DNA of 64,000 bases, from positions 43,648,001 to 43,712,000 of the forward strand of contig OZ024740.1 of NCBI GenBank assembly GCA_964016885.1, in the 5' to 3' direction. Below the pieces are notes generated by a model. That model was given only the letters and a program-made list of their open reading frames with translations. It did no database searches and had not been told where the DNA came from. This stretch comes from Eledone cirrhosa (taxonomy: Eukaryota). Position 1 is the stretch's first letter, and the number at the start of each line of letters is the position of its first letter. Of the stretch, positions 15,663-59,686 are shown piece by piece. Made by a program: the position numbers and the translations under genes.

Positions 15663-15708
15663 GTTTTTTTGAGAAAAAAATTATTATTTTTTTTCAAAAT
15701 AAAGTTCA

Positions 15709-15736: not shown

Positions 15737-15896
15737 ATGAGTTATTCCTTCACAGGATACAAATTAATGTCTTATAATGCTTCAGCGGTACAAAAAATAA
15801 ACAATTCTCTACAATTAATCCTCAAAAATTGCTTACTCACGGAGCTTCAAAAAACGTACATCCACTTTCGTCAATAATAATAATAATAATAATAAT

Positions 15897-16003
15897 TGTT
15901 TCTACTTTAGGCACAAGGCCAGCAAATTACCCAGTGCATTACTGGTACTTTATTTTATCGACCCCGTAAGGATGAAAGGCAAAGTCAACCTCGGCGGGAT
16001 TTG
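15897..16003 (-). mobile_element. 5'-truncated SINE in the (AAT)n spacer
   Basis: Matches the 3' part of 46427-46611; bounded by (AAT)8 and TAAT|G. Confidence 0.92.
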
Positions 16004-16007
16004 TAAT

Positions 16008-19000
16008 GATTTCATTTATTGGCCACAAGGGCCGATATATAGGGGACAATACAAAAGACTGGGACAGTGGGGTTTTACAGAACAATCGAGTAAACAATAT
16101 GAATAACAATAACAAAGTAACGATAAAATTACAACAAGAAAAAATTCCCCAATAGGGGGGATGACCACCCAGGTTTCGCTCAGGTACCCCACCGATACTG
16201 AACGACCCGACGCTTCGAGAGCACCCTGGAAGGGCACCCCTCTCCTCCTCAAATTTACCTACCTACAGCCGCATGACCAGAGTAGGCCCAATCACACGGG
16301 CCATTCTCGCCACATTCACCCACCTTTCAGCAAATGTACTGGGGGGCAGCACTTCTCGCTCCACCCTCATCTTCCTTTCCAAGTGAAACTTGAAATAGTC
16401 GATGGGGGTTGTTGGCCGAAGAGAAAAGTGTCTGTCTTCAGTCCTTTCAACCTCGTCCACCATACAACCTCTTTCGCTACTGCCACCAGACAGAGGAACA
16501 CATTGCTTGCCCTTCCTGACCAAAAGAAGGCGGCGGGTCGATCTTCACTATGGACTCGGCCGATAGCCGGATCCGTTCTACACGCGACGACAGCTGCTCA
16601 ACATAACTCCACAAGTCAGTAATGCACGGACACTGGACGAGTGCGTGCCGAATGTTTTCGTCGCTCTGCGAGCATCTCGGGCAGGTCCGTCTGACAGCAC
16701 TTCCGTGTCTGTAGAGTTTATCTCGAACCGGCAGTGCCCCCCCCCCCCCCCTGTTACACTGCCAAGCGAGTGATTTTTGGAAATTATCCATTGCCCCCCG
16801 GCTCGAAAGTCCTCCGGTACAGACTGGTTAGTTCGGACTTGTTGACTCTCAGAGCCTCTCCGAGTGCGTCGTCGCACTTGCCCACCACTAATCTTCTATA
16901 GAACTCGAGAGTGGAAGTTTCACTGACCGCATTGCCCGCCTGGTAGAGATGCCAGTCACCCAGTCTCGGTCTCTTCTTGACCCAGGACTGCAGCTCAGTC
17001 AAAGAAACGAGCTGCAGAAACGCCCGTCTGACAAACGGCGACCACACCTGTTCACCGTTTAGGCAGAATATCTGGAGATGCCGCAGCCTCAGAGCGTGCC
17101 TGCGCATCATTAGCCACAGCAAGCCCAGCCCTCCACATAGAGGGTGCTGGCAGAAAATGGACCGCCTCACCAGCGGAACCGGACCCCTCCACAAGAATTT
17201 GAAGAGGAGCCGCTCCAAGATGGCGAGGCGCGAACGGGGGCAAGGGACGACGGTCAGACGGTAGTAGGTGACGGACGCGATGTACGCGTTCGCCACCTCC
17301 GCCCGACCTTTCAGTGATAGCTTCATCCCAGCCCATTTCTGGGTGAGGCTGGCTACCCTGCCCGTCACCTCGTCCCAATTCTTATCCACCTGGAGGTCTG
17401 GCCTGAACCAAACCCCGAGCAACTTTACCAGTCCGTCCGTCCAGCACCTAACGACGCTGTTGCACGGCATGGACTTTCCTTTCCAGATGCCGCGTTGCAA
17501 GCCCACTGACTGTTCTGGGTTAAGTTTTGCTCCCGTCAGCCTTTCATATTCCTCCAATAAGTTACTGACCACCTCGATTTTCCGAGGTGTCCGACACCAT
17601 CATGGTGATTTCGTCCGCATAAGCCGACACAGCCTTTCCGCGTCCCGGTTCGAGTGGGATGCTCTGCAACAGCTCCAGCTTCCGTAGTAAAGGCTCGAGA
17701 GTCAATACGTACAGAAAGGAGGAGAGAGGGCACCGTAGCCGGACCGATCGGGAGACCTGAAACGGTTCCGAGAGGTGGCCATTAATTTTGACCATAGAGC
17801 AAGTGCCGCTGTGCATTGCAACGATCCAGCTTCTGAAGACGGGGCCGAAGCCAGCCGCCTTGAGGACAGCCTCCAGGTACCGATGGTCGACCCTATCGAA
17901 TGCTTTCGATTGATCTAAATTGATCAGATCCCCACCGAAGCCAGGTTTACACCCTACCCTCTCTATGATGTATCGCATTAGGTGGAGGTTGTCGTGTATG
18001 GACCTGGTTGGGACTGCGCAAGTTTGCGCCTCCCCAACCAAATCCCTGACGACAAGCGCCAACCACCTCGCTAACACCCTGGCCAAAATCTTAAACTCTG
18101 TGTTGAGCAGAGTTATGGGCCTGAAATTATCTAATGTGTCCCTCTTGTTCTCGTCTTTCCTCATCAGCGTCACTACGCCCCGGCTCACAGAACTGGGAAT
18201 ACTCCCGTTTTGCTGCCAGTTGCAGTAGAGGGCTTCGAGGAGATTGGAGAACAAGTCTGGCATATTTACGTAAAGCTCGTAGGGCAGACCATCCAAACCG
18301 GGTGACTTGCGCCTCATGCAGCCTACAGGGGCATCCTGAATCTCGGCTGAAGTAATTGGCCTTTTGAAGCGCCCAGCGTCAGCCGTCGAGAGTTGCGGCA
18401 AGCCACCGAGGTAGGGACTGAAGTCCGCCACCATCTCTGACCCGCCACTTCCCCCGAACAACCGAGCAAAATGTTGGCGACAGGCCTCACATATCTGCTT
18501 GGAATCGCTCAGCTCGTGTCCGTCTTGCTCCGTCAAAGACCTAATCGTGGTTTTATTACTACGCTGCGCCTCTGCCACGCGGGCCCATCGAACAGCTTTG
18601 GTTCCCTTGTTTCTCAGAGCACGCGCCTTAGCCCTGACTATGCAACCTTCGTGTTTCACATTGAAGAAATTGTCTAATGCCATTCTCGCCACTAGCACGT
18701 CAGTTGCAATGCCACTACCAATAGCCTCGTCTAACTTATCTACCAACTCCCCCTCCTTTCTATTTTTCTCTAACGCTACTTCTTTGCTAAACTCTATCGA
18801 CATTACTCTAATCTCTCTTTTGAGAGCCCCCCACCATCTATTGTTGACGATTCCCCCTGTCAACTTTTTCTTAACTAAATTGTTGACCTGGTCCCTGTAA
18901 GCCTTACGTGCCGGAAATGACATGTTTAGCTTCCAGTAACCAGGTCCTAACCTACGCGTCTCATCTAGGTCGACCATACAGATCACAAACTTGTGATCTG

Positions 19001-21893
19001 AATAGGCGACCGTTTCAAAACGTGGACAGCTTACACTATTTCTGTCTATTTTCCTAATGAATATCCTGTCTATATAAGATCTAGATGACCGTATGCGGTT
19101 AGCCCAGGTCCACACTGGCGCATTAGGGAAATCTAGTCGGTACCTGTCAGACAGTTGGAACTGGCTGATCAAGTTCTTGAGGCTTTTGCACCCCCCGCTC
19201 CTATCGGATACTCCTCCCACACAGTCCCAGAGTGCGTCTAAGATGCCGTTCCAGTCCCCCGCTTACAGTAAAGGGCGAGACGTACACAGAAAGGCTTCCA
19301 GGCGTCTAAAGAAGTCCAGCCGTCCTGCCCCAATTGGAGCATAGACGGCCACCAGTCTAACGGCACCACATTCGTTAATGTTCACGTCCAGGACCACCAA
19401 CTTTCCGTCCGGGTCCCGGAAGATCGACCTTACCTCGAGATCCAGGCCTTTCCTAAACAGCACTGCCACCCCTCCTCCCATTCCAGGCCGGCTAACAGAT
19501 GCAAAAATCTGAAAGTCGTCGAAAATGGGGGCTAGTGCGCGCGTGTCGGAAATCCTGGTCCCGCTGACGGCAATTACATCCATTTCTAGAGACCTGAGGT
19601 CGTTGAGCAGGTGACCCTGCTTCTAGGACGATCCCAGGCCTCGAACATTTAAACATCCTACTCTTAATACGGCCATGTTGGCAGGTTAAAAAGAGAGAGA
19701 GGAAGGTTTACTTACCCTCAAGGCTCTTGTGAAGGTCGGGTTGTTCGACCTCCATAGTTGGTGGTTGTTTCTTTTGGGAACCCCCTTAAAAGTCTTGAAG
19801 TGGGTTTTCCGTTCGAGGTTCCCACGTCCCGAGGAAAGCTGTCTCGTATTTCTTTGAATAAATCGATCGACATTCGCACCAGAACCAAATCTTCCGGCAC
19901 GCGAAATGTGCTCGATTTAAAAATTTCCCCCTCTTTTTGTATATTTTCACTTTGTGCAACGAGGGCCATCAGTTCCTTGTTGGCCCTCCTGACGAGCACG
20001 AAGTTTTGTATGTTTTGTTGGTGTGATTTTATTTGTTTGCGTGGCTGTGGTGGTGATGGTTTTGGTGGTGTTGTTTCGGTTGTGTCTGTGTTTGTTGTGA
20101 GTGCGGTGTCTGTGGTTTCAGATGTTTGTGTGTATATTTGTTCTTGCGTCTGTTTAGGTTGTTTGCGTTTGGGGGATTCTGGTGATGGTGATGGTGGTGT
20201 TGATGTCGGTGTTATTGGAGATATGTTTGCGTGGGTAGTGTCTCCGTTTTTTTTATTGTGGGTGATTTTGCGCTTTGTTGAGTTTTTTTTTTCTTTTTGT
20301 GTTTACTTTTTTGTATTTTGGGGGATTTTGGTTTTCCCTCATCTTCACTACTGGTAGATGAGGGGTCTGTGTATGTAGGTGTGTCTGTATGTATGTTTAT
20401 GGTGTGTGTATTTTGGGGGGAGGGGGAGTTTGACAGCTTTCCTCGTTTTCCCCCTGGGTGGTCAATGTTGGTGATGGTCTTTCTATTGGTGTTGTTGTTG
20501 GTGGTTTTGCCGGTGCTGGTGTTGGTTGTGGTCCTCGCCCCGGCGTCGGCAGCAGTGGAGCCTTTCGACCCCTTGCCTCTTTCAGCAGTTGAGGGCAGAA
20601 GGCTCGCAAATGGTTTTTTTCCCCACAAACAAAACACTGCGGCCTCTTGCCCTCGGTCATAATGTGAATGACCGTCTCATTCTGAAGGCGGATGTGGTCC
20701 GGGATTGTCTTCACATTCTCGGGCCTGATCTGGAGAAGGATCTCCAGGTCAACCCCGGACCAGTCCTCTCTGACCGTTCTGGTCACTTCTATAGGGACGG
20801 TATCCGTCCCCTCCACAATCACACATCCCAGAAGCCACCACATGTCAAGTCCTGGTGGGATTCTGGGAATACGGAGACGGGCTTTTTTTTTCCCATGTGG
20901 GAGGGGTACATTATGACCTTGCTGGTTTTGCAAGGAGTCATAGCGTGTTTTATAGCGAGGGCTTCTGACTTGAAAAACACAGAAATGGTGCCGTACTGTC
21001 TGCCCCTCTTTATGTATTCGGTGTCTTCTCTGATGCACCTCAGCGCGACTTCGACATCTGCTTGTGTGATTAAAGCTGCCCTTTTGGTTTGTGCTGAGAT
21101 GCATCTATACTGCACCGTTCTGCGCTCCACTGCCTCAATAGCTTCTACCGGGACAGTAAAGTTGGCCCAGGTTTGCTCTTGCTTGATGAGCTTCCATGCC
21201 TGGGCCAACATTTCATCTTTGTTTGAGAGGTCCATGTTGAAGCATGGCCTCTTTTTTGCTGCTGCCGCAGCGAAAGTGTCTTCTTGTTTTCGTTGGGGGT
21301 TTTGTTGTCGTTGTCATTGTTCTTGTTGGTGTTGTTGTTATCACTGTCGCTGTTATCATTGTTGTCTTTGTTGCCACCGCTCTTCTCGGTGCAGTTGGTA
21401 TTGTTGCTGTTGGTGTTGTCGCTATTTGTTTTCATGTTAGTGGTGTTGATATTGTTGTTACATTTGTTATTTTTTTTTTTTTGTTATCTGTATTTTCGTT
21501 GTCGCTGTTACTGTCATTTTTTTTCAAAATTAGAGTTCTCATTGGTATCATTGGTGTCTTTGTTTACCTATTTTGTGGTGGTGTTCGTGTTATCAATTTG
21601 TCTTAATTTCACTGTAGCGCTCCTCTCAACTTCTACGTCGTTGTCGCACGACAGCCGACATATCGCTGGGGGGCATGGCTCAGCCATGTTTTTTTATCTT
21701 CGTAAATTTTTTAACATGTAAAAAAAGTTCAAATATTTGGCCAAAAGGCCCAAATATTATACTTTCCCCTTCACAGGGCAAAGTCTAAGGACTTATATAC
21801 CTTACACAACAAGAAATATTTAACAACAAATAATTTTAACAGGCAAATAAAGCGACTTACTGGGAGCGGGCAAAAATGACGTCCGAACAGATC
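16008..21893 (-). mobile_element. Full-length Tx1-clade element, lineage A2 copy a, frameshifted
   Basis: ORF2 fragments within 16263-19676, ORF1 fragments within ~19710-21687, both UTRs, (AAT)n flanks. Confidence 0.95.
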
Positions 21894-21911
21894 AATAATA
21901 ATAATAATAAT

Positions 21912-22898
21912 GTTTCTTTATTGGCCAAAATGGCTAACATGAAGAAAAACATTACACACGTGGGTTTGGGCCGTGTAAAAAAGGTTATAAGAAGAAGATA
22001 GAAATATCAACAAAATTCAAACAAGAAAATTCCCCAATAGGGGGAAACCTCCGAGGTCACTCGTGGCAAAAACCACACAAAAGACGACGGCCAGCATGAC
22101 CACCAGGACAAGCGTCCTCTCTCACTTTTCCACTCCTCAGTCTACAGGAGCATACTCAGAGCGGGATCGTTCACTCGGACCAGACTCGCCACTTTCACCC
22201 ACCTTTCAACAAATTTATTTGAAGACAGCACTTGTCTCTCCACACTGATGTTCCTCTTCAAGTGAAATTTGAAAATTAGGGATTCGCCGAAGAGGAAAGT
22301 GTCCGTCTTCAATCCTTTCAACCTTGTCTATCATACAATCTCTTTCGCCATGGCCACCAGGCAGATGAAAACTGCCTGTCCTGCCCCCTCCCTCCTCCTT
22401 AAAGGAGGACGGTGGGGCTATCTGCACAAGGGACTCAGTCGAAAACCCCATCCGTTCTACACGTGACAGCAAATGTTCGACATAGTTCCACAAGTCAGCA
22501 ATGCTCGGACACTGTATCTGTATTTTTGTTGTCGCTGTTACTGTCATTTTTTTCAAAATTAGAGTTCTTATTGGTATCATTGGTGTCTTTGTTTACATTG
22601 TTTGTGGTGGTGTTCGTGTTATCAATTTGTCTTAATTTCGCTGTAGCGCTCCTCTCAACTTCTACGTCGTTGTAGCACGACAGCAGACATATCGCTTTTT
22701 TTCATCCATAAATGTTTTTAAATGTAAAAAAACTTCAAATATTTGGGCCAAAAGGCCCAAATATTATACTTTGCCCTTAACAGGGGAAAGTCTAAGGGCT
22801 TATATCCCTTACACAACAAGAAATATTTAACAACAAATAATTTTAACAGGCAAATAAAGCGACTTACTGGGAGCGAGCAAAATACGTCCGATTAGACC
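21912..22898 (-). mobile_element. ~1-kb chimeric unit: A2 5' end (22515-22898) fused to a C-like (D) 3' end (21912-22514)
   Basis: Abrupt switch from ORF2 C-terminal QCPSIADLW to A2 ORF1 N-terminal/5'-UTR sequence; ORF1 ATG region deleted; (AAT)n on both sides. Confidence 0.88.
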
Positions 22899-22929
<31 letters not shown>

Positions 22930-22937
22930 GTAATAAT

Positions 22938-25900: not shown

Positions 25901-28900
25901 ATGCTAGACCTATCTATTTCCCTACAAAATACTCTATCTAGATATGATCTGGATGACCATATGCGGTTTGTCCAAGTCCACATTAGCACATTCGGGAAAT
26001 TCAATCGGTACCTGTCAGACAGTTCAAAACGCCTGAGCAGGTTGGTGAGGCACTTTCACCCTCCTCCCCTATCCGCTAATCCCACACAGTCACAGCGTGC
26101 ATCTAAGATCCCGTTCCAGTCGCCCACTAACATTAAAGAGCGGGACGTTCCAAGAAAGGTTTCCAGACGCCGGAAGAAATCAGGCCACCCTGCTCCTATC
26201 GGGAAATATACGGCCACTGGCCTGAAAGCTTGCCCGTCTCCGCTGGTCACGTCCAGCACCACCAACTTCCTCTGAGTCCAGGAAGATGGTCCGTATGGCG
26301 GGAACCAAACCTCTCCGAAAAAGCACAGCAACTCCTCCCCCCGATCCAGGACGGCTGGGAGATACGTACACATCGTAGCCGCCGACGAGCGGTGCGAAGG
26401 CCCGTGCTTCGGAGATTCTGGTCTCGCTGATGGCCACTACATCTATGATTAGTGACCTGAGGTCGTTGAGCAGGTGGCACTGCTTCAATGACGACCCCAA
26501 GCCACGCACATTTATGCTGCCTATTCTGAGTGAGGTCATGTTGAAATGGAGTGGAAAAGATGGGAAGCACCACTTACCTTACTTCTCGTAGAGGAAGGAT
26601 GGTTTTTCCATCCTTTTCAATGCTTGTCGGCTTGTCCGGAAGGATTTCCTTATAAATCCTCCTGGAGAGTGTTTGTCGGAAATCTCCGATGTCTTTGGAG
26701 AAGTTTTGTTTTATTGTCGTGTATGTTTTCTGTGTGATGCGAGTGATTTGTATGTGTGGAGGTGGTGTGAACTTTTGGGGAGTTGTGTAGTCTTTTTTGT
26801 GATGCTGGTGTTGTGGTGGTTGTAGTGTAATAATTGGTTGTTGTTCAAATTTACTTGTTTCTATTTTAGGCACAAGGCCAGCAAATACCCAGTACATTAC
26901 TGGTACTTTATTTTATCCACCCCGTAAGGATGAAAGGCAAAGTTAACCTCGGCCGGATTTGAACTCAGATCATAAAGGGACGTAACTTTATGCTTCAAAG
27001 CATGGTGTCCGACTCTCTACCGATTCTGCCAATCCACAAATTTAATTGTTTCTACTTTAGGCACAAGGCCAGCAATTACCCAGTGCATTACTGGTACTTT
27101 ATTTTATCGACCCCGTAAGGATGAAAGGCAAAGTCAACCTCGGCGGGATTTGAACTCAGATCGTAAAGGGACGTAACTATGCTGGAAAGCATGGCGTCCG
27201 ACCCTCTACCGATACTGCCAATCCACAAATTTAATGTTGTGTAGTGTGTATCGTTTTGGTTTTGTTATGTTTGCGTTTGTTGTGGGTTAGTTTCTATTTC
27301 GCTTTTTGGTGACTTTTGTGGTGTTGGTGATGGTGGTGTTGGGGTTAATGATGGTGATCGTGTTGGTGTTTGTGGTGATGGGATTGGTGATGCTGGTGAG
27401 GATGGTGGCATAGCTGTCCTAACTTTTTTGTTTGATAGTTTATTTGTTTCCCTCCGTATTTTGTTTTTGGAGGGGGAAGGAAGAGGATTTTTTTCTTTTT
27501 TGACTTCTTTTTCTTTTGTTCTTTTTTTCCTGATACAGTTTCCCACTCCCCGTCGTCACAATCTGTCTCCTCTTGCGATAGGTCAGGTAGTGGAAAATCC
27601 TCCACAGGCGTTGGTTTTGGTTGTGGCGTGGTGGATGGTGTAGGCGCTAGTGCTAGTTCTGGCGCGTTGGGTGGTGGTGGTGTTGGTTTTGCTACTGTTG
27701 CTGGGGTTGTTGCTGCTACAGTTGCTTCTGTTGTTGCTGCTACAGTTGTTGCTGCCATTTCTGCTGCTGGTTGTGTTGATGGTTGAGTCACTGGGGTGGG
27801 TAAGAGAAGTGGCCTAACAACTTTTTAGCCTGAGGGCAGAAAGCCCTTAGGTGGGTTCCTTCACCAGAAACGACACACCTAGGCCTTCTACTCTCGAAGA
27901 TTACGGTGAGGTGGCTGCCTTCAGTGAGGTCTATTACCTCTGGGATCTCCTCAATGCTTTTTTGGTCCGCTTGGATCAGGAGCTCCATCCCAGATCCGGA
28001 CCAGGTCTCCTGCTTTTCTTTTGCTATTTCTATTATTTTGGTGTTGGCCTCGATGCCGTCGAGGACGGCAGCCATTAGTCTGGTCATTTCGATAGCCGGT
28101 GGAAAGTGGGTCACCCTGATTTTTACGAGTCTCTGGCCACAATAGCTTGGGACGTGTGTGAAGTCGTCGCTTCTTAATGGGGCCATGGATTGCTCTCAGG
28201 CCTCCTGTGGTGTTTCAAAGAACACGTCCACGGTTACATATTTCTGCCCACGTCTGATGTGCCTTTTCGTTGCCCACACATGTCTCAAAGCTTTTTGGAT
28301 TTGGGACTCGGATGCCCGTTCCACTCGGCGCGATTTTATGTTAATCGTCCGATAAGACACGGTGCATAGGCGTCGATGGTCCATGTTATTAGGTGGCGGG
28401 GGGAGCTGACCCTGTACCCATTCTTTACCATTCTCTTGGCTTAATCTAATTCCTCCTGAGTTACCTGGATTGTTTTGTATTTTTTGGCTGCTTTGGCAAA
28501 CGACGCGGTGATGTTGTTATTTTCATTGTTGTTGTTGCTGTTGTTATTGTTATTTTGTTATTGTTATTTTTAGTTTCAGTTGTGGTGGTAGTGGCGTCAG
28601 TGGTGTTCGGTGTGGAAGAGTCGATTTTGGGTGAATCCATTTCGATCTCACGAGATATTAATTTATTTTTTTCTTTTGTTTCTGTTGTCGCTGTGGTGCT
28701 GGTGGGGGTGGTGGCTTCAATACCTGCAGTCATTGGCAAAGGCGGGAAATGAATGTCTGCATGAGACAAATTTAAATTATTGCTACTGCTTATATTTTTA
28801 GTGTTGGCAAACCTAGTAATATTTACAATGGTGGTGTTGGTGTGAGGTGTTAGTTTGTGAGGAAGGCTCTCAGCTGATTGGTTTAGCTGTGAGTCGTCCA

Positions 28901-29115: not shown

Positions 29116-29133
29116 AATAAAAATAATAATAAT

Positions 29134-38547: not shown

Positions 38548-38576
38548 GCTGGCAGGATGAATGGGAGAGGAAAGGT

Positions 38577-46929: not shown

Positions 46930-49900
46930 TAATTTCATTATTAAGCCACGCAATGCTCACATTAAGGAACCACTCATGATAATAACAATTTAAAAAAACA
47001 ACAAAAAAGAAAATCCCGTGACCAAGAAATACCGGGATGGCGGGGGCGGGGAATAGCCGTGTCTTTATGGGAGGACGACCCCTCTAGTCTTGTTGACACT
47101 CGTCCTAGAAGTGGTAACACGAAATGATTACCCCTTGGCGGATAAGGATAAAACGCGACAAAATAAAGTAAATGTCTAATGATAAAATCTCATACCGGAT
47201 CGGCCGTCACCCGGCTCAAAAAGGGCCGCGTCCCTCAGAGAGGAACCAGACTGGGGTCGAAAAATCAGCTAATGGTTCAAACCTTCCCATCACTTCGGAT
47301 CTGGAGACCTCCCATAACCGGAATACTCCTACTGTTGGCCCTCCATGCTCACCACCAAGAAATCCAGAGAAAAAGAGAGAAAAATGGTCAAGGGAAGATA
47401 ATAAAGAAGTCCTTGAGGGTTTCTACACTGCCATGTACTACCCATTAAATACATCGAATACAGAGCAGACATATATCAACTGGAAAAAGAAACATCCCGA
47501 AAACAGAGGCTATATTGATAGTAACAAACTAGCCAATATACGAAGAAATATTGTAAAAAGAGAATTATTAACTGATATAGAAATTGATCAGATCAAGCTA
47601 TTAGCACAAAGTCAGCGAAGGGAAAATGAAACATGTGTCAGTGAAAACGAGGTAAATTGTAACACTTCGAATCCCAGGGTTGGGGCGGAATCACTGACAA
47701 CAGAACAAATTAGAAAGGATCGAAAAAGTGGAGGGAGTGCATGCTCAAGATAAAACTCAAAATGAAAACAATGAGATCGTAAATGATAAAGAAATGAATG
47801 AGAATGAACTTGCCCACTTGAAGGATGAAATTATGATCGAATGGATGAAAATGAAAGAATCTGACATGGGGGAACGAGACACCTTCCCTAAGATCCAGAA
47901 CTCCACACAGAACCAAAAGATAATACACAAGACTAACATAATTCTCAAAAACATTATCATCACAAACAAACTAAACATTATTGATTTAAATCATCTCTAT
48001 TATGCATCGGCTAAAGTCACCACTCACTTATGTGGAGTGAAGATGAAAAAACAAAGGAATTCCCACAAAAAATCTACTTGGCAAGAGAACATCAATCGCC
48101 AAATAAACCTTCTCCGATCTTACATAGAAATTTTAACAAACTAAAAAGTAGGTGAACATGTTAAACAAACTAAACTTAGAAAATTGAAAAGAAAGTACAG
48201 TATAAAATCAACAAGTGACATAGACATGCTGATAGAAATAATCAAGCAAAAAGTGTCGGCCAAAGCTGCTCGTATAAGGCGCTTTGAAAAACGATCTAGA
48301 TTCTATAAGGACAATAATATGTTCAAAAACAACCAAAGAAACTTCTACAGAAAAATTGGTAAGTTAACAATAACTGCTAAATCAATACCACCCAAGGAGG
48401 AAGTGCAAGAATTCTGGGAAAAGATCTGGGCCGAAGAAAAAGTTCATAATATACATGCCCCATGGATAGACAGACAAATGAAAGATACAGCTCACCTTGA
48501 GGAACAAATATGGAAAAATATAACAGTTGAACAGTTGCGTTTGGCTCTAAGAAAAACCAGCAAATGGAAATCCCCAGGAAAAGACAAAATACAAAATGTT
48601 TGGATAAATGCCTTCACAGAGTATCATGAGCTGTTAGCCCAACTTTACAATGAAATAGTTAAGGAGCCAGAAAAGATACCATCATGGCTAGTTAACGGCA
48701 TTACATTACTGCTTCCAAAGAATGATGAGACAAACAATCCCAAAAATTACAGACCGGTAACTTGCTTGACCACAATGTATAAAATTTTAACATCAGTCCT
48801 AACTGAATATACATATGACCACCTGATAACACATGACCTATTTCCCATTGAGCAGAAAGGGTGTAAACGAGGCTCATATGGCTCTAAGGATCAGCTTTTG
48901 GTTAACAAAATGATACTGGAAGATTGTCATAATAGACACAAAAATCTATCAATTGCTTGGATAGATTATAAAAAAGCATTCGATAGTTTGCCACACAGTT
49001 GGATTGAAAAATGTTTAGTGATTTTCAAAATATCTCCCGTTGTCAGGAGGTTTTTATCATTCAGCATGAATACATGGAAAACGACACTCCTTTTGAATAG
49101 TGAAACAAAATCACTGGAAGCTGGAGAAGTTAATATTAATTGTGGAATTTTTCAGGGTGACTCTTTATCACCGCTTTTATTCTGCATCGCACTTATACCA
49201 TTAAGTAAAATGTTCAATGAAACAAAACATAGATATAAAGTGTATGACAAAACCATTAATCACTTGTTCTACATGGATGACCTGAAACTATTTGCAAAAA
49301 ATGATGAACAATTGCAAGGGCTATTATCCACTGTGGAGCAGTTCAGTGATGACATTAAAATGGTGTTTGGACTAGATAAATGCGCCAAAGCAACGTTCAC
49401 CAGAGGAAAGCTGCTGAAGAGTTCAGACATTAATCTTGATCGGGGGAACGTGATAAGAGAACTTGATCAAGAAAAAACTTACAAATATCTAGGTGTTTGT
49501 GAAGGAGACGGAATCAAGCACTCGACAATCAGAGAAAGGATAACGAAGGAATGTTACCGCAGAGTAAGAGCAATCTTAAGAACGGAATTGAATGCAAGGA
49601 ATAGGATCGATGCCAAAAACACGCTTGCCATACCAGTAGTAACCTACAGTTACAATGCAATCAACTGGTCAAGCACAGAGATCCGTAGGCTCGATACAAA
49701 AATTCGAAAATTCTTAACCATGCACAGAATGCATCACCCTAAGGCAGATACAGATAGAATATATCTCCCTAGGAAAGGAGGAGGACGTGGGTTAATCCAG
49801 TTAGACATTGCGTTGAAAACTGCAACAATTGGATTATCTACATATCTAAGGGAATCACATGATTGGATGATCAAACTCGTTTTGAAACACGAAAGCATCA

Positions 49901-50961
49901 AAAGATCATACTCCATTACAAAAGATGCACAAAGATACAGTAATGGACTACAAATTTCAGAAGTCCCATTTACTGCTGAAATGGAAAACACAGAAAAAGC
50001 AAAGCAGGTAAAAGTAACTGCAAAGAAAGAACTGCTACAGAAACTGGCTAAGAAATGGCAAGAAAAGCCTCTGTATGGAAAATACCCAGAACGAGCTAAC
50101 AATCCTGATGTTGACAAAACTTTAACTCATCAGTGCTTGGCATCCTCTGGACTGAAATCGGAGACTGAAGGACTGATTATATCAGCACAAGATCAGTGTC
50201 TGCCAACAAAAAATTACCAAGCCAACATAATAAAAAATGGATGCAGCCCATTATGCCGTGTATGCAAAAAACAACCAGAGACCATTGACCATATAATTTC
50301 AATGTGCAGTCCTATAGCTCCAACCGAATACCTAAACAGGCATGACAGAGCTGCACAATACATACATTGGATAATGTGTAAGCATTTTGACCTGCCCCAT
50401 CAAAAGTATTGGTGGGAGCATCAACCACCTCCCATACTTGAAAAAGATCACATCTCAATCTTGTGGAACTTAAGCATCCAAACAGACCGAAAAATAGATG
50501 CAAATAGACCTGATATAATATTGAAGGACTTTAAAAAGAGGGTATGCCTGCTAATTGATATGTCCGTTCCAATAGACAAGAATGTATCTATAAAAACATT
50601 TGAAAAATTGAGCAAGTATAAGGACTTGGAGATAGAAATTGAAAAAATGTGGAAATTGAGAACTAAAACAATACCAGTGGTTGTAGGCGCTCTAGGAATG
50701 ATACCTAAGGGGTCTAATGATTACTTATCGCAAATCCCAGGAAACCCGCGTATAGGAGAAATACAAAAGATAGTACTAATGGGAACTCCCCATATACTAA
50801 GGAAGATTCTGTCAGTATATCACAAGTCTAAACACCTAAAGATGCATGTGTGAGTATGTATGTCCTTTCTTGAACGTTGGCAGACCTTGTTGTCTCTTGA
50901 GGTCACTGGTTGTGACTTGGTGATAACATTGTATGAACATAAAGCAAGATAAATGCAGCTG
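46930..50961 (+). mobile_element. R4/Dong-like RLE non-LTR retrotransposon, near full-length (5' boundary uncertain, between 46688 and ~47010)
   Basis: Single long ORF architecture, short 3' UTR, (TAA)n tail at 50962-50980. Confidence 0.9.
47172..50853 (+). pseudogene. RT plus restriction-like endonuclease ORF; one frameshift (~47730-47750) and one stop (48142-48144); 889 aa remain open
   Basis: KSPGKD, NYRPVTCL, IDYKKAFDS, GIFQGDSLSP, FYMDDLK; CRVCKKQPETIDHIISMC; RHD, RPDI, LIDMSVP, KLSKY. Confidence 0.93.
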
Positions 50962-50980
50962 TAATAATAATAATAATAAT

Positions 50981-53900
50981 GATTTCATTTATTGGCCACA
51001 AGGTCCGACATATAGGGGACAGTGGGGTTTTACAGAAAAATCGAGTAAACAAAATGAATAAACAAAGTAACAATAACAAAGTAACAATAAATTAACAATA
51101 AAATTACAACAAGAAAAAATTCCACAATAGGGGGGATGACCACCTAGGGTTTGCTCAGGTACCCCACCAGTCCTGAACGACCCGACGCTTCGAGAGCACC
51201 CTGGAAGGGCACCCCTTTCCTCTTCAAATTTACCTACCTACAGCTGCATGACCAGAGTAGGCCCACTCAAACGGGCCATTCTCGCCACATTCATCCACCT
51301 TTCAGCAAATGTACTGGGGGGCAACACTTCTCTCTCCACCCTCATCTTCCTTTCCAAGTGAAACTTGAAAAAGTTGATGAGGGATTGGCCGAAGAGAAAA
51401 GTGTCTGTCTTCAGTCCTTTCAACGTCGTCCACCATGCAACCTCTTTCGCTACTGCCACCAGACAGAGGAAAATTGCCTGCCCTTCCTGGCCAAAAGAAG
51501 GCGGCGGGTCGATCTTCACTATGGACTCGGCCGATAGCCGGATCTGTTCTATACGCGACAACAGCTGTTCAACATAACTCCACAAGTCAGTAATGCACGG
51601 ACACTGGACGAATGCGTACAGAACGGTTTCGTCGCTCTGTGCGCATCTCGGACAGGTAAGTCTGACAGCACTTCCGTGTCTGTAGAGTTTATCTCGAACC
51701 GGCAGTGCCCCCCCCCCCCCTGTAGCATTGCCAAGCGAGGGATTTTTGGAAATTATCCACCGTCTCCGGCTCGAAAGTCTTCCGGTACAGACTGATTAGT
51801 TCGACTTCGTTGACTCCCAGAGCCTCTCCGAGTGCGTCGTCGCACTTGCCCACCCCTAATCCTCTATAGAACTCGAGAGTGGAAGTTCCACTGACCGCTT
51901 TGCCAGCCTGGTAGAGGGCAGTGATTGCCTGGAAACATTCCAGATGCCAGTCACCCAGTCTCGGTCTCTTCTTGACCCAGGACTGCAACTCAGTCAAAGA
52001 AACGAGTTGCGGAAAGGCCCGTCTGACAAACGGCGACCACACCTGTTCACCATTTAGGCAGAATATCTGGAGATGCCGCAGCCTCAGCGCGTGCCTGCGC
52101 ATCATTAGCCACGGCCTGCCCAGCCCTCCACGTAGAGGGTGCTGGCAGCAGATGGACCACCTCACCAGCGGAACCTGACCCCTCCACAAGAATTTGAAGA
52201 GGAGCCGCTCCAAGATGGCGAGGCGCGAACGGGGCAAGGGACGACAGTCAGACGGTAGTATGACGGACGCGATGTACGCGTTCGCCACATCCGCCCGACC
52301 TTTCAGTGATAGCTTCATCCCAGCCCATTTCTGGGTGAGACTGGCTACCCTGCCCGTCACCTTGTCCAAATTCTTATCCACCTGGAGGTCTGGCCCGAAC
52401 CAAACCCCTAGGAACTTTACCGGTCCGTCCGTCCAGCGCCTAACGACGCTGTTGGACGGCAAGGACTTGCCTCTCCAGGTGCCGAGTTGCAAGCCTACTG
52501 ACTTTTCCGGGTTAAGTTTTGCTCCCGTCAACCTTTCATATTCCTCCAATATGTTGCCGACCACCCCGATTTCTGAGGTGTCCGACACCATCACGGTGAT
52601 GTAGTCCGCATAAGCCGACACAGTCTTTCCGCGCCCCGGTTAGAGCGGGATGCCCTGCAACCGCTCCAGCTTCCGCAGTAAAGGCTCGAGAGTCAATACG
52701 TACAGAAGCGAGAAGAGAGGGCACTGAAACGGTTCCGAGAGGTGGCCATTAATTTTGACCATCGAGCAGGTGCCGCTATGCATCGCAGCGATCCAGCTTC
52801 TGTAGACGGGGCCGAAGCCAGCAGCCTTGAGGAGAGCCTCCAGGTACCGATGGTCGACACTATCGAATGCTTTCGATTGATCTAAATTGATCAGAGCCCC
52901 ACCGAAGCCAGGTTTACACCCTACCCTCTCTATGATGTATCGCATTAGGTGTAGGTTGTCGTGTATGGACCTGGTTGGGTTGCGCAAGTTTGCGCCTCCC
53001 CAACCAAATACCCGACGACAAGCGCCAACCTCTTCGCTAAGCCCTGGCCAAAATCTTAAACTCTGTGTTGAGCAGAGTTATGGGCCTGAAATTATCTAAT
53101 GTGTCCCTCTTGTTCTCGTCTTTCCTTATCAGTGTCATTACGCCCCGGCTCACAGAACTGGTAATACTCCCGTTTTGCTGCCAGTTGCAGTAGAGGGCTT
53201 CGAGGAGATTGGAGAACAAGTCTGGCATATTTACGTAAAGCTCGTAGGGCAGACCATCCAAACCGGGTGACTTGCGCCTCATGCAGCCTACAAGCGCATC
53301 CTGAATCTCGACTGAAGTAATTGGCCTTTCGCAGCGCCGTCCAGCGTCAGTCGTCAAGAGTTGCGGCAAGCCATCAAGGTAGGGACTGAAGTCCGCCACC
53401 ATCTCTGACCCGCCACTTCCCCCGAACAACCGAGTAATTGTAGGCGAAAGGCCTCACACGTCCTCTTGGAATCGTTGAGCTCGTGCCCGTCTCGGTCCGT
53501 CAAAGACCGAATCGTGGTTTTATTACCACGCTGCGCCTCTGCCACGCGGGCCCATCGGACAGCTTTGGTTCCCTCGTTTCTCAGAGCACGCGCCTTAGCT
53601 CTGACAATGCAACCTTCGTGTTTCGCATTGAAGAAATAGTCTAATGCCATTCTCGCTGCTAGCACGTCAGTTGCAATGCCACTACCAATAGCTTCGTCTA
53701 ACTTATCTACCAACTCTCCCTCCTATCTATTTTTCTCTAATGCTACTTCTTTGCTAAACTCTATCGACATTACTCTAATCTCTCTTTTGAGAGCCCGCCA
53801 CCATCTATTGTTGACGACTCCTCCTGTCAACTTTTTCTTAACTAAATTGTTGACCTGGTTCCTGTAAGCCTTACGTGCCGTAAATGACATGTTTAGCTTC

Positions 53901-56881
53901 CAGTAACCAGGTACTAACCTACGCGTCTTATCTAGGTCGACCATACAGATCACAAACTTGTGATCTGAATAGGCGACCGTTTCAAAACGTGGACAGCTTA
54001 CACTATTTCTGTCTATTTTCCTAATGAATATCCTGTCTATATACGATCTAGATGACCCTATGCGGTTAGCCCAGGGCCACACTGGCGCATTAGGGAAATC
54101 TAGTCGGTTCCTCTCAGACAGTTGGAACTGGCTGATCAGGTTCTTGAGGCTTTTGCACCCCCCGCTCCTATCGGATACTCCCACACAGTCCCAGCGTGCG
54201 TCTAAGATGCCGTTCCAGTCCCCTGCTAACAGTAAAGGGCGAGACGTACCCAGAAAGTCTTCCAGGCGTCTAAAGAGGTCCGACCAACCTGCCCCAGTAG
54301 GAGCATAGGCGGCCACCAGTCTAAAGGCACCACCTTTATTATTATTAAAGGCACATCATTATTGTTCACGTCCAGAACCACCAACTTCCCGTCCGGGTCC
54401 CGGAAGATCAACCTTACCTCGAGGTCCAGGCCTTTCCTAAACAGCACTGCCACCCCTCCTCCCATTCCCGGCCGGCTAACAGATGCAAAGATCTGATAGT
54501 CGTCGAAAATGGGGGCTAGTGCGCGCGTGTCGGAAATCCTGGTCTCGCTGACTGCAATTACATCCATTTCTATAGACCCGAGGTCGTTGAGCAGGTGACC
54601 CTACTTCCAGGACGATCCCCGGCCTCGAACATTTAAACATCCTACTCTTAATACGGCCATGTTGGCAGGTTAAACAGAGAGAGAGGAAGGTTTCCTTACC
54701 TTCTGGGCTCTTGTGAAGGTCGGGTTGTTCGACCTCCATAGTTAGTGGTTGTTTCTTTTGGGAACCCCCTTAAAAGTCTTGAAGTGGGTTTTACGTTCGG
54801 GATTCCCACGTACCAAGGAAAGCTGTCTCGTATTTCTTTGAATATGTCGAGCGACATTCGCACCAGAACCAAATCTTCCGGCACGCGAAATGTGCTCGAT
54901 TTAAAAATTTCCCCCTCTTTTTGTATATTTTCACTTTGTGCAACGAGGGCCATCAGTTCCTTGTTGGCCCTCCTGACGAGCACGAAGTTTTGTATGTTTT
55001 GTTGGTGTGATTTTATTTGTTTGCGTGGCTGTGGTGGTGATGGTTTTGGTGGTGTTGTTTCGGTTGTGTCTGTGTTTGTTGTGAGTGCGGTGTCTGTGGT
55101 TTCAGATGTTTGTGTGTATATTTGTTCTTGCGTCTGTTTCGGTTGTTTGCGCCTGGGGGATTCTGGTGATGGTGATGGTGGTGTTGATGTTGGTGTTATT
55201 GGAGAGATGTTTGCGTAGGTGGTGTCTGCGTTTTTTTATTGTGGGTGATTTTGAGCTTTGTTGATTTTCTTTTTTCTTTTTGTGTTTCCTTTTTTGGATT
55301 TTGGTGGATTTTGGATTTCGCTCATCTTCACTACTGGTAGATGAGGGGTCTGTGTCTGTAAGTGTGTCTGTATGTATGTTTAAGGTTTTATTGGTGTGTG
55401 CATTTTTGGGGGGATGGGCAATTTGACAGCTTTCCTTGATTCTTCCCTGGGTGGTCAATGTTGGTGGTGGTCTTTCTATTGGTGTTGTTGTTGGTGGTTT
55501 TGCCGGTGCTGGTGTTGGTAGTGATCCTCGCCCCGGCGTCGGCTGCAGTGGAGCCTTTCGACCTCTTGCCTCTTTCAGCAGTTGAGGGCAGAAGACTCGC
55601 AAATGGGTTTTTTCCCCACAAACAAAACACTGCGGCCTTTTGCTTTCGGTCATAATGTGAATGACAGTCCCATTCTGAAGTCGGATGTGGTCTGGGATTG
55701 TCTTCACATTCTCGGGCCTGATCTGGAGAAGGATCTCCAGGTCAACCCCGGACCAGTCCTCTCTGGATGTTCTGGTCACTTCTATAGGGACTGTATCCGT
55801 CCCCTCCACAATCACACATCCCAGAAGCCACCACATGTCAAGTCCTGGTGAGATTCTGGGAATGCGGAGACGGGCCGTTCTTTTTCCCATGTGGGAGGGG
55901 TACATTATGACCTTGCTGGTTTTGCAAGGAGTCATGGCGTGTTTCATCGCGAGGGCTTCTGACTTGAACCATATCGAAATGGTGCCGTACTGTCTGCCCT
56001 TCTCTATGTACTGGGTGTCTTCTCTGATGCACCTCAGCGTGACTTCGAAATCTTCTTGTTGGATTAACGCTGCCCTTTTGGTTTATGCTGAGATGCATCT
56101 ATAATGCACCGTTTGGCGCTCCACTGCCTCAATAGCTTCTACCGGGACAGTTAAGTTGGCCCAATTTTGCACTTGCTTGATGAGCATCCATGCTTGGGCC
56201 AACTTTTCATCTTTGTTTGAGAGGTCCATGTTGAAGCATGGCCTCTTTTTTGCTGCTGCCGCAGCGAAAGTGGTCTTGATTTCGTTGGGGGTGTTGTTGA
56301 CATTGTTCTTGTTGGTGTTGTTGTTAGCACTGTCATTTGGTGTTAGCACTGTCATTGTTGTCTTTGCTGCCACCGTTGTTCTCGGTGCAGTTGGTATTGT
56401 TGCTGTTGGTGTTGTCGCTATTTGTTTTCATGTTAGTGGTGTTAATATTGTTGTTGTATTTGTTATTTTTTTTTATCTGTATTTTCGTTGTCGCTGTTAC
56501 TGTCATTTTTTTTCAAATTAGAGTTCTTATTGGTATCATTGGTGTCTTTGTTTACCTTGTTTGTGGTGGTGTTTGTGTTATCAATGTGTGTTAATTTTGC
56601 TGTAGTGCTCCTCTCAACTTCTACGTCGTTGTCGCACGAGAGCCGACATATCGCTGGGGGGCGTGGCTCAGCCATTTTCTTTTTCTTCGTAAATTTTTTA
56701 ACATGTAAAAAAAAAGTTCAAATATTTGGGCCAAAAGGCCCAAATATTATACTTTCCCCTTCACGGGGCAAAGTCTAAGGGCTTATATCCCTCACACAAC
56801 AAGAAATATTTAACAACAAATAATTTAAACAGGCAAATAAAGCGACTTACTGTGAGCGAGCAAAATACGTCCGCTTAGACC
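50981..56881 (-). mobile_element. Full-length Tx1-clade element, lineage A2 copy c, degraded
   Basis: ORF2 fragments within 51238-54660; ORF1 fragments within ~54696-56675; (AAT)n flanks. Confidence 0.95.
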
Positions 56882-56901
56882 AATAATAATAATAATAGAT
56901 A

Positions 56902-57410
56902 GATTTCTTTATTTACCATAAAGGCATAAAAAGAAGGGACAAATACAAAGGGGGGGTTTACATATAATCGAGTAAAAAGGGTGTAACATGAAAATAATCG
57001 AAAATAACCTCAAAAGGGAGGGGACGTGATGGGGGTTGCACACACCCCCGAAAAAGTGTGCAATCCTTTGCCCGGGGAGCACATGGAGAAGGTGCTCCCC
57101 TCTCCTTTACTTCTTTACCTACAGGATGGTATACAGAGAAGGCCCATTTACACGAGCCATTCTCGCCACTATCACCCACCTTTCATAAAACTGCCTGTGG
57201 CCAAGCACCTCTCTCTCCATTCTTATCCTTCTTCCGAAGTGATATCGGAAGAAGTAGACCAGACTATGGCCAGAGAGGAAGTTGCCTGACCTCAGACCTT
57301 TCAATCGTGTCCACCAAACAACCTCTTTCAACATGGCTATTACGCACAGAAAAACCGCCTTTGCTTCCTTTGTGAAGAGGGGAGGCGGTTTGATTGTCAT
57401 CACGGACTCG
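56902..57410 (-). mobile_element. 3' fragment of a divergent Tx1 lineage (E)
   Basis: ORF2 C-terminus PPPLFTKEAKAVFLC..WWTRLKGL..ARMARVNGPSL; 3' UTR ending AATAAAGAAATC. Confidence 0.9.
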
Positions 57411-57873
57411 AAAACGATGATAGAAAACGATCAGCTGAAGGTACTGTGGGATTTTAGGATACAGACGGACAAGAAACTGGAACACAATAGACCTGACCTG
57501 GTGGTTTGGGACAAAGAAAAAAGATCGTGCCTGATTGTGGATGTGACCTGCCCATTCGACACGAGAATGCAAGAGGGGGGAGGGAGAAAATTAACCGATA
57601 CCAGGAATTAAAGTGGGAGGTAAAAAGGATTTGGAACTGCCATGAAATCAAAGTGGTCCCGATTGTCATAGGCGCACTAGGTACTATCTCAAAATGTTTC
57701 CAGGGATGGTGAAAGAAAATTGGCCTCGCCCCGCTTTTTTGAACACTTCAAAAGGAATGCTTGCTGGGAACAGCAAGAACCCTCCGATACGTCCTGAATA
57801 TCTGAGCCTGCAGGTAGTGGCTTCATTTCAACAAACTTTCCAGTTAAATAACATCAATGACTGAGACTCAAAG
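57411..57873 (+). mobile_element. 3' fragment of a second R4/Dong-like family
   Basis: LWDFRIQTDKKLEHNRPDLVV..LIVDV; 3' UTR matches ~59570-59647; (AAT)n tail. Confidence 0.9.
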
Positions 57874-57903
57874 AACAATAATAATAATAAAATTAATAAT
57901 AAT

Positions 57904-59646
57904 AGACCATTATATTGCGAAAAGTGAGAGCAGGAAATTTGTTGAGCAAAAGTATGAAGTCCTGGAAAACAGAGTTAACATCAGCTGGAGAATCCTTGGG
58001 AGGCGTGAAGATCAAGAGAGTTATCTTCCAGGGACATAGTCTTCCCCTCTGTTGTTTGTCCTTGTCCTGTTGCCCCTGACCATTATACTGCAAAAAGTGA
58101 GAGCAGGATACAAGTTGGGAAAAGGAAAGCTTACCATCAACCACCTCCTCTTCATGGACGATCTTAAGCTCTTCGGGAAGAGTGAGAAGGAGTTGGATGT
58201 ACTTGTTGACACTGTCCGTATTTTCAGCAATGATATATGTATGCAATTTGGTATTAGTAAGTGTGGAGTCCTAGTGATGAAGAGGGATAAATTGAGCAGA
58301 AGCAACGGAATCTAGGTACCAACAGGTGAGATGATAAAGGAAATTGACACTGAAGAAGGATATAAATATTTAGGTGTTCTGGAGGCAGATGACATCAAGA
58401 ACAAAAAAATGAAGGAATTGATAACATCTGAGTACATTAGGAGAGTAAGGAGCGTATTAAAACCACATCTAAATAGTAGGAATGTCACGAGTGCAGTGAA
58501 TTCCCGAGCTTTGTCTATTATTAGGTACAGTGTGGGAATTCTGAAATGGAATGTTGATGAACAAAAAGAAATGGATAGGAAGACTAGGAAACTATTGACT
58601 ATCTACAACATGTTCCACAAGAGGAGTGATGTCGATAGACTCTACTTAAGGAGATCTGAAGGTGGAAGAGGTCTTATCAGCATAGAGGACTGTGTTCAGA
58701 TGGAGAAAAACAACCTGCACAATTACGTGAGTGACAGTAGGGAGCCAATGCTCAAAATTGTACTGAAGGAGGGGACAATATACCAGGGGATGTCCAAGCA
58801 GGAAATAACAACAAAGAGGAAGAGCAACCTTCATGAAAAATCCCGTCATAGTACCTTCTTTAAGAAAACTGAATTTAGAGATCCACAGACATGGAACTGG
58901 TTAAAATGAGGAGACCTTAAAAAGGCTACAGAAGGAATGCTAATGGTTGCGCAAGAGCAGACCCTCAGAACGAAGTGGGTGAAACACCATATTTACAAGG
59001 AGGAGGCTAGCCCACTGTGTAGGATCTGTGGAGAGAGAGAGGAGACTGTGGCTCACATTGTATCCGAGTGTAAACACCTAGCCCAGACTCATTATAAAGG
59101 CTGGAGACATGATGTGATGGGCAGGGTGATCCACTGGCACCTATGCAAAGTAAACAATTTACCATATTCTGAGAAGTGGTATGAGCATAAGCCAGAGTGA
59201 GTGATAGAAAACGATCATATTTTAGGATACAGACGGACAAGAAACTGGAACACAATAGACCTGACCTGGTGGTTTTGGACAATGAAAAAAGATCGTGCCT
59301 GATTGTAGATGTGGCCTGCCCATTTGACACGAGAGTGAAAGAAAAGGAGAGGGAGAAAATTAACCGATACCAGGACCTAAAGTGGGAGGTAAAAAGGATT
59401 TGGAACTGCCATAAAGTCAAGGTCGTCCCGATTGTCATAGGCGCGCTAGGTACTATCTCAAAGAGTTTCCAAGGATGTTTAAAGAAGATTAGTCCAGCCC
59501 CGCTTTTTGGAACACTTCAAAAGGCATGCTTGCTGGCAACAGCATGAGCCCCCGATACGTCCTGTATATCTGAGGCTGCAGGTAGTGGCTTGATATTCAT
59601 TTCAACAAACTTTCCAGTTAAATAACATCAATGACTGAGACTCAAA

Positions 59647-59647
<1 letters not shown>
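57904..59647 (+). mobile_element. 5'-truncated copy of the second R4/Dong-like family
   Basis: LFMDDLKLF, YKYLG, GGRGL, CRICGEREETVAHIVSEC, RHD, RPDL; multiple stops; followed by (AAT)13 at 59648-59686. Confidence 0.93.

Positions 59648-59686
<39 letters not shown>

Follow-up and report, generated by a model that had tools for sequence, protein, structure and literature searches.

The window analyzed here is a 64-kb stretch of Eledone cirrhosa DNA (64,000 nucleotides; assembly GCA_964016885.1, contig OZ024740.1, positions 43,648,001 to 43,712,000), occupied from position 10021 to its right edge by a nest of retroelements that lack long terminal repeats (non-LTR). The nest holds Tx1-like long interspersed elements (LINEs), a short interspersed element (SINE) with a similar 3′ end, and R2/Dong-type elements, and its members meet in runs of the microsatellite (AAT)n. 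Each of the window's 13 runs with at least four AAT/ATT units borders on the end of a retroelement, and every Tx1-like 3′ end lies on the ATT strand while every Dong-type end lies on the AAT strand. An earlier reading made from the DNA letters alone (here, the sequence-only reading) explained the array by a LINE endonuclease that nicks AATAAT|G and regenerates this site in each target site duplication (TSD). The junctions described below suggest a looser form of that mechanism, in which a duplication of about 18 bp restores the target and further repeats may be added to it.

Tx1-like LINE families and their endonuclease

Self-comparison separated the Tx1-like LINEs into six families (A1, A2, B, C, D, and E), which are 69 to 87% identical to each other. 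Family A1 has two full-length copies on the − strand, A1a (10044 to 15872), with an intact second open reading frame (ORF2; 10304 to 13756), and A1b (34875 to 40694), with a single stop in ORF2. Over 5829 aligned columns the two copies show 16 substitutions and 9 gap columns, and their origin by segmental duplication was rejected because both flanks differ. Family A2 comprises three full copies on the − strand (94 to 95% identical), all full-length but degraded, namely, A2a (16008 to 21893; 87% identity to A1), A2b (40722 to 46669), and A2c (50981 to 56881), plus one 5′ piece (22515 to 22898) that is fused without any run to a family B 3′ piece (21912 to 22514; the composite spans 21912 to 22898, − strand). 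Family C also has three copies in the window. C0 (1 to 2608, + strand) has its 5′ end beyond the window and ends in an (ATT)16 tail (2561 to 2608), C1 (22938 to 29115, − strand) is full-length and degraded, and C2 (59687 to 64000, − strand) continues past the window edge. The single D copy (29134 to 34855, − strand) is degraded and likely truncated at its 5′ end within ORF1, and E is a 3′ piece (56902 to 57400, − strand) that abuts a Dong-type fragment without a run. Two local peculiarities are the absence from A2b of part of the endonuclease region (44150 to 44172), as compared with the other A copies, and a (TTTTTTC)10 expansion (33396 to 33465) in the ORF1 region of D.

The intact ORF2 of A1a encodes 1150 amino acids with Exo_endo_phos (an apurinic/apyrimidinic [APE] endonuclease), RVT_1, and zf-RVT domains, and a Pfam search of the open frames upstream of it (13753 to 15680) gave no match. 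The predicted order of APE endonuclease, reverse transcriptase (RT), and zinc-binding domain behind an upstream ORF is that of the Tx1 clade (L1 group). In the PDB, the retroelement matches of the A1 endonuclease are L1 endonuclease structures, again with the L1-type layout. The hairpin loop of such endonucleases has a role in their specificity (PMC1919474), and the putative specificity loop is near-identical across A1, A2, C, and D (eight copies aligned), so a separate specificity of A1 is not indicated. The nearest named relative of A1a ORF2 is an Argonauta hians protein (67 to 69%), which points to an octopod as the probable host; no named Tx1 reference was found among its homologues. Apart from the U2- and 5S-linked relatives described next, the Tx1 label is our assumption.

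A metagenome scan with the ORF2 alignment yielded 361 loci, of which the best 80 (25 to 45% identity) contained no long AAT/ATT tail, the nearest being (ATT)4 in L029 and (ATA)4 in L047; these loci therefore provide no test of the target. Among 12 related loci that were scanned (25 to 45% identity), 5 carry U2 small nuclear RNA (snRNA) sequence and 1 carries 5S rRNA sequence. Such sequence lies beside the distant relatives at L007:4675-4885, L010:1-123 and 5806-5947, L013:5815-5977, and L017:5892-6010, and U2-like sequence also occurs upstream of ORF2 in L001, L008, and L010. The U2 snRNA linkage of five of these loci parallels that of Keno, a U2-targeting Tx1 family (PMC4494074).

R2/Dong-type elements in the same runs

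A near-full-length R2/R4-Dong-type element occupies 46688 to 50961 on the + strand, opposite to the neighboring LINEs, with (AAT)n on both sides. Its 902-amino-acid open frame (48145 to 50853) has an RT domain, and a CCHC motif and the PD..D motif of a restriction-like endonuclease can be read in the translation; few lesions lie upstream of 48145. All PDB matches of this protein are R2 proteins, reaching up to residue 837, and its sequence homologues are unnamed or uncharacterized. Two 5′-truncated fragments of the same type lie at 57401 to 57876 and 57904 to 59647 (57401 to 59647, + strand). A single ORF with predicted RT, CCHC, and restriction-like endonuclease regions, together with a (TAA)n tail and target, are the traits of R4/Dong elements, and we take these copies to be Dong-type elements, an assumption that fits the (TAA)n target of Dong. 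They use the same (AAT)n runs as the Tx1-like copies, in the opposite orientation.

AAT runs and spacers

Junction sequences, duplications, orientation, and relative ages can be read directly from the DNA. Ten spacer lengths listed previously were each re-read, and all proved correct. On the + strand, seven of them are true Tx1 head-to-tail spacers: (AAT)8 between the A1a 5′ end and a SINE 3′ end (24 bp; 15873 to 15896), (AAT)6 between the A2a 5′ end and the B 3′ end (18 bp; 21894 to 21911), a 39-bp run with one interrupted unit between the A2 5′ piece and the C1 3′ end (22899 to 22937), an 18-bp run starting with AATAAA between the C1 5′ end and the D 3′ end and followed by C (29116 to 29133), T(AAT)6 between the D 5′ end and the A1b 3′ end (19 bp; 34856 to 34874), (AAT)9 between the A1b 5′ end and the A2b 3′ end (27 bp, exceeding the 3′ run of A1b; 40695 to 40721), and (AAT)5AGATA between the A2c 5′ end and the E 3′ end (15 + 5 = 20 bp; 56882 to 56901). 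The other three, which had been listed together with these, border the + strand R2/Dong-type elements: (AAT)6 joining the 5′ ends of A2b and the Dong-type element, followed by T (18 bp; 46670 to 46687, + strand), T(AAT)6 at the tail-to-tail junction of that element with A2c (19 bp; 50962 to 50980, + strand), and (AAT)13 at the tail-to-tail junction of a Dong-type fragment with C2 (39 bp; 59648 to 59686, + strand). The runs at 46670 and 50962 are most likely one older A2b/A2c spacer that was split by the less decayed Dong-type element.

The earlier junction list was incomplete. It lacked a 4-bp spacer (TAAT) between a SINE fragment and the G of A2a (16004 to 16007), an interrupted 27-bp run between the two Dong-type fragments (57877 to 57903), two junctions without any run, and four of the SINE copies. 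Between the A1a 3′ end and the unique left flank lies a further run of 21 to 23 bp (10021 to 10043, + strand).

The seven head-to-tail spacers measure 18, 18, 19, 20, 24, 27, and 39 bp. An 18- to 19-bp mode, and the equation of spacers with TSDs, had been proposed. A mode near 18 bp is present, with 4 of the 7 spacers at 18 to 20 bp; the equation with TSDs holds as a floor near 18 bp and fails for the spacers of 24, 27, and 39 bp. No head-to-tail spacer is shorter than 18 bp (0/7), and this floor is a more solid feature than the mode. A modal class as large as 4/7 arises in 1.3 to 4.7% of flat nulls, with the 19- and 20-bp spacers generously counted as six units. Under the expectation of one TSD per junction, the SINE dimer described below fits, and so would 4 of 7 LINE junctions (18 to 20 bp), given a LINE TSD as long as that of the SINE. 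All seven intact LINE 5′ ends meet their run in phase (15872, 21893, 22898, 29115, 40694, 46669, and 56881). Each of the seven also starts with a sense-strand G, which may be a copied cap; the two truncated ends examined carry one extra T.

SINE insertions and the regenerated site

A profile search found six SINE copies in the window, and G follows the duplication in five of them. The two clearest insertions had been described as carrying 18-bp TSDs ending in AATAAT|G in unique DNA. Both duplications are indeed exact and followed by G: the 5′-truncated SINE at 9130 to 9182 lies between repeats at 9112 to 9129 and 9183 to 9200 (9112 to 9200, − strand), with no tail added, and the SINE at 46427 to 46611 lies between repeats at 46409 to 46426 and 46612 to 46629 (46409 to 46629, − strand). 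The latter site is not unique DNA, as it falls within the 5′ untranslated region (UTR) of A2b. Three A2 5′ UTRs read AATAAAG at this position and are empty; in the copy that was hit, the second repeat has AATAATG, and the T therefore likely predates the SINE insertion.

Regeneration of the site is seen at the SINE dimer inside C1 (26846 to 27235, − strand), formed by an older copy (26856 to 27037) and a younger one (27047 to 27226). The dimer is flanked by a 10-bp duplication ending in TTTAAT, with one mismatch in the first copy, and C2 shows the corresponding empty site near 63655 to 63665, with G next. The younger SINE differs at 2/180 positions from the copy at 46427 and at 12/180 from its neighbor, which marks it as a later insertion at a regenerated site; since the two copies differ in age, a tandem duplication was rejected. 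The younger copy sits exactly on the TAAT|G that the older one had regenerated, and its own duplication measures 9 to 21 bp. The proposal that each insertion recreates its site is in this way shown once for the SINE, and it is likely for the LINEs.

The remaining two copies are a young 5′-truncated SINE with a 4-bp TAAT duplication directly before the G of A2a (15897 to 16007, − strand), with 0/106 differences from the copy at 27047, and an older SINE (5484 to 5695, + strand) that has 23 to 25 differences from the other long copies and a duplication of at most 3 bp (AAT), followed by A. Four flanked SINE copies gained no repeats over and above the duplication, as expected if AUU repeats beside the RNA body serve for priming. 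The copies at 5484, 27037, and 27226 share a start that lies 5 nucleotides in from the 5′ terminus of the longest one (46611), which is either where a subfamily begins or a hot spot of truncation.

The preference for G was compared with the background, in which G follows TAAT at 126 of 430 sites. The bias has a P value of 0.025 for the three clear first hits outside runs (3/3), of 0.079 if the ambiguous old SINE is scored as a miss (3/4), and of 0.010 for 5/6 SINE copies, which are not all independent. On the LINE side, the statement that most Tx1-like 3′ ends read (AAT)n|G was borne out, as 10 of 11 start with G on the AAT strand and D starts with C. The G-starting ends span five of the six families, and the next base varies (A, T, or C). 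This is consistent with an element that rewrites its preferred site.

A similar 3′ end in SINE and LINEs

The last 30 nucleotides of the SINE and the LINEs can be aligned; they have a GAAA close to the terminus that does not vary, and their (ATT)n runs have the same polarity. Both can form a hairpin with a 4-bp stem and a 5-nucleotide loop, mostly CUUGU (10044 to 10075 and the matching 3′ ends of the other LINEs and SINEs). Hairpin cells are paired in 84.4% of cases, versus 67.2 ± 3.9% in shuffles (0/500 shuffles reach the observed value), three of the four pairs have changed on both sides, with all slid controls scoring lower, and compensatory changes separate families A, C, and E and the SINE. 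The lowest-energy fold contains the hairpin in 5/5 LINE ends (3 to 4 bp). These features suggest that the SINE and the Tx1-like LINEs form a stringent LINE/SINE pair of the kind that shares a 3′ stem-loop (PMC3747384). The window elements resemble such pairs in the common 3′ end and in the compensatory changes within a short stem; they differ in that the match covers about 30 nucleotides and that its function is putative. The SINE evidence would then speak for the LINE enzyme, with mobilization of the SINE by the LINE a likely inference.

An AATAAA motif lies 5 to 7 nucleotides before the LINE 3′ end in each of 10 measured copies, and none of the 11 LINE 3′ ends inspected is followed by poly(A). 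From this combination, the RNA likely runs into the repeat before it is polyadenylated and is primed inside the repeat.

The SINE may be related to octopus OR2. OR2 has been cited as a CORE SINE (PMC4758252). Rfam and ARAGORN searches of the window, SINE head included, gave no match, and searches of contigs from viruses, metagenomes, and prokaryote genomes with patterns of the SINE 3′ end yielded 0 hits.

Public sequence data and the left flank

Reads and contigs of four public runs were compared with positions 9765 to 16300. In run X23, the consensus of 6416 reads in front of A-type 3′ ends is (AAT)n with about nine units, which shows the tail and not the target. In run X16, pieces with 0 to 2 differences from A1a reach a depth of about 1860 to 2150, versus 10.4 for the unique flank; this depth hints at many young copies and is not to be read as a copy number. 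These runs indicate a very abundant A1a-type family. No joint that cleanly removes A1a, and hence no empty allele, was present among 15 of 1177 joints listed, repeat rows excluded, and the runs yielded no length for the duplication. The left flank of the nest further contains two inverted-repeat elements resembling miniature inverted-repeat transposable elements, one at 7793 to 8345 (132-bp arms, 92% identity) and one at about 3399 to 4834 (several nested arms).

Discussion

The most probable explanation of the nest, to which we assign a probability of roughly 0.55, is that the target is restored by TAAT|G-biased nicking together with a duplication of about 18 bp, the spacers being this duplication plus extra repeats. 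Tx1-like LINEs and the SINE with the common 3′ end would settle head to tail in (AAT)n runs, where the LINE endonuclease would nick the AAT strand immediately behind TAAT and would favor G as the next base. A second cut about 18 bp away would duplicate the site and provide a fresh target with each insertion. The nicked end would likely pair with AUU repeats by the 3′ end of the RNA, with the result that little or no tail is added and poly(A) is not copied. Each spacer would then consist of the duplication, with its floor near 18 bp, and any extra repeats, and R2/Dong-type elements on the other strand share the runs and account for the three remaining listed spacers. The AAT-strand polarity, the priming on AUU, and the duplication of about 18 bp in the sequence-only reading all fit the SINEs; its plain nick at |G fails for A1b. 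We infer the nick position, the G bias, the second-cut distance, the priming, and SINE mobilization by the LINE from the arrangement of the junctions. L1-type duplications peak at 14 to 16 bp (PMC2912911), so that 18 bp is ordinary in kind.

The young A1 copies, which had been said to fit this mechanism, are in fact its weakest cases, and they need an added step. Their 5′ runs measure 24 bp (A1a) and 27 bp (A1b), neither of them 18, against 3′ runs of 21 to 23 bp and 19 bp, respectively. A TSD made of pure repeat can be no longer than the run to the left of the nick, so the runs of A1b are not what plain nicking at |G could yield. A TSD of 24 to 27 bp was rejected for A1 because the 5′ side of A1b lacks the D bases that it would include. 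Both copies had also been placed beside the 3′ end of an older A2 copy. This applies to A1b, next to A2b, and not to A1a, whose 5′ neighbor is a SINE fragment; head-to-tail arrays always put a 5′ end by a 3′ end, so such adjacency adds little, and A2 supplies 3/8 of the non-A1 Tx1 3′ ends inside the array. The A1 junctions are those with the clearest insertion order. An 18-bp duplication back-calculates to preinsertion runs of 28 to 29 bp for both copies, with the nick 2 to 3 units inside the run. The extra repeats (+6 and +9 bp) would likely reflect either such an in-run nick or an AUU leader copied from a donor that was transcribed from within its own spacer, two sources that the window does not separate. 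For full-length L1, upstream initiation has been described as a source of additional 5′ nucleotides (PMC2912911). The young SINE at 15897 might have added repeats to the A1a spacer, although the other SINEs added none, and slippage possibly lengthened the A1 spacers, yet four older junctions stayed at 18 to 20 bp.

Several further observations weigh against the proposed mechanism. A clear 18-bp duplication is present in two of six SINE copies, the others measuring 10, 9 to 21, 4, and at most 3 bp, and the old SINE at 5484, with its repeat of at most 3 bp followed by A, is a possible counter-case. At the dimer, the alternative TAAT|T site was already mutated, which confounds any preference for G at that place. 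The G of a LINE 3′ end is inherited and is not an independent observation for each copy; for this reason, and since an A at that position would often count into the run, it is weak evidence alone. With no LINE duplication measurable in unique sequence, the figure of 18 bp for the LINEs is borrowed from the SINE. The two junctions without any run, 22514/22515 (B and the A2 5′ piece) and 57400/57401 (E and a Dong-type fragment), look like deletions or template switches. The shared hairpin was chosen by eye from the same related sequences and has four pairs only, and the lowest-energy fold of the SINE end differs and lacks it. Finally, all counts of junctions, duplications, and copies come from this single 64-kb window, and the numbers are small.

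A doubtful but possible alternative is plain microsatellite targeting, of the kind known from Kibi, Koshi, or Dong: any TAAT with a purine behind it would be cut, usually within a run, G would have no special role, and arrays would grow since each tail is further microsatellite. L1 and R1Bm endonucleases do cut before a purine (PMC2912911, PMC1919474), element ends are carried by every one of the 13 longer runs, and the 18-bp back-calculation puts both A1 nicks inside their runs. However, at the three clear SINE first hits that lie outside runs the next base is never A, the SINE at 15897 lies at the run end, and in-run nicks would scatter the spacers above 18 bp, yet four of seven sit at the floor. 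Less probable still is the strict form of the model, with the nick always at AATAAT|G, every spacer an 18-bp TSD, and the longer spacers put down to slippage or assembly errors. The four spacers of 18 to 20 bp agree with it, as do the 19-bp 3′ run of A1b, equal to the duplication that D should have left, and the position of the SINE at 15897, exactly where a run stops in front of G. Its difficulty is that the youngest LINEs carry the 24- and 27-bp runs while four older, decayed junctions measure 18 to 20 bp, so that slippage would be fastest where time was least; moreover, SINE duplications of 10 and 4 bp exist, and one 18-bp spacer is followed by C and another by T. A passive nest, in which AAT-tailed elements pile up in a gene-poor region and junctions arise by tail recombination or assembly collapse, is very improbable, for although two run-less junctions resemble deletions and no other annotated content was seen in the region, the neighbors belong to six families that are 69 to 87% identical and cannot have been assembled by unequal exchange, Tx1-like and Dong-type ends keep to opposite strands, and exact duplications flank SINEs.

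The TAAT|G-biased mechanism can be extended into a more elaborate scenario, which we regard as unlikely. An undescribed cephalopod Tx1 lineage would write AAT|G into its own 3′ end, take its primer-pairing AUU repeats from the spacer below, and begin transcription in the spacer above, thereby passing 5′ repeat tags to its daughters (compare the telomeric HeT-A). It would recognize its RNA by the 3′ stem-loop, drive an abundant octopod SINE, and share the (AAT)n niche with an unrelated Dong-type element that renews the target from the other strand.

Array growth by repeated insertion at a duplicated target has already been published. In crocodilians, the SINE SINEU-3 is mobilized by the Tx1 LINE Tx1-Mar, and its tandem copies sandwich a 16-bp TSD, which the author reads as sequential insertions at one site (PMC4494074). 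The window elements are similar in the likely pairing of a SINE with a Tx1-like LINE and in their tandem SINE copies around a TSD. SINEU-3 and Tx1-Mar differ in the Mariner transposon target, the snRNA heads, and the poly(A) tail, whereas the window elements have an (ATT)n tail, and the G behind the run is part of the LINE 3′ end. Double-insertion tandems include the Drosophila R1 array, with 33-nucleotide duplications of ribosomal DNA, and dimers of the P element and jockey (bioRxiv 10.1101/158386). There, too, the junction contains the duplicated target and arrays start by repeated insertion at one site, but those dimers are of the same family and are later expanded by unequal exchange, whereas the present nest is composed of members of six LINE families, of a SINE, and of a second clade, and amplification of a unit is not seen. 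Adjacent copies are independent insertions, as the families are 69 to 87% identical and the dimer SINEs differ in age. Renewed cleavage of a TSD is discussed in PMC3812793.

Microsatellite-specific Tx1 families are likewise known, namely, Kibi in (TC)n, Koshi in (TTC)n, and crocodilian families in (TTCC)n/(TTTC)n (PMC4494074, PMC3812793). Like the window LINEs, they are APE-type LINEs assigned to the Tx1 clade, and they insert into microsatellites, as the window LINEs probably do; they differ in their repeat unit, which is not AAT. A family counts as microsatellite specific if >20% of its copies are flanked by one microsatellite (PMC4494074); within this one selected window, 11/11 LINE 3′ ends and 7/7 intact 5′ ends contact (AAT)n. 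The passages of PMC4494074 and PMC3812793 considered here name no Tx1 family of (AAT)n or (ATT)n, Fig. 3 target list and supplements aside. We found no published (AAT)n Tx1 family and no report of this LINE/SINE pair, although Repbase and the original Kibi/Koshi and octopus SINE papers, which lay outside the search, may hold one. Dong (R4 clade) targets (TAA)n (PMC3812793), the same microsatellite, and three Dong-type pieces lie in the nest; Dong differs from the Tx1-like copies in its restriction-like endonuclease and its opposite orientation. Both Dong-R4 and L1-Tx1 elements are listed as recently active in Octopus vulgaris, the target being left unmentioned in the passages of that study considered here (PMC13282606).

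The feature described by the sequence-only reading is real, and the mechanism that it proposed, one of a known type, is correct in part. Since array growth of this sort is already in the literature, what is gained is a further example and a clean system for tests rather than a new mechanism. The intact A1a ORF2 makes nick preference and duplication length directly testable. If the TAAT|G-biased mechanism is true, (AAT)n joins the targets of microsatellite-specific Tx1 families, and an octopod SINE of very high abundance acquires a likely partner LINE. The mechanism would further explain the LINE nests of tens of kilobases and the many (AAT)n loci in these large genomes.

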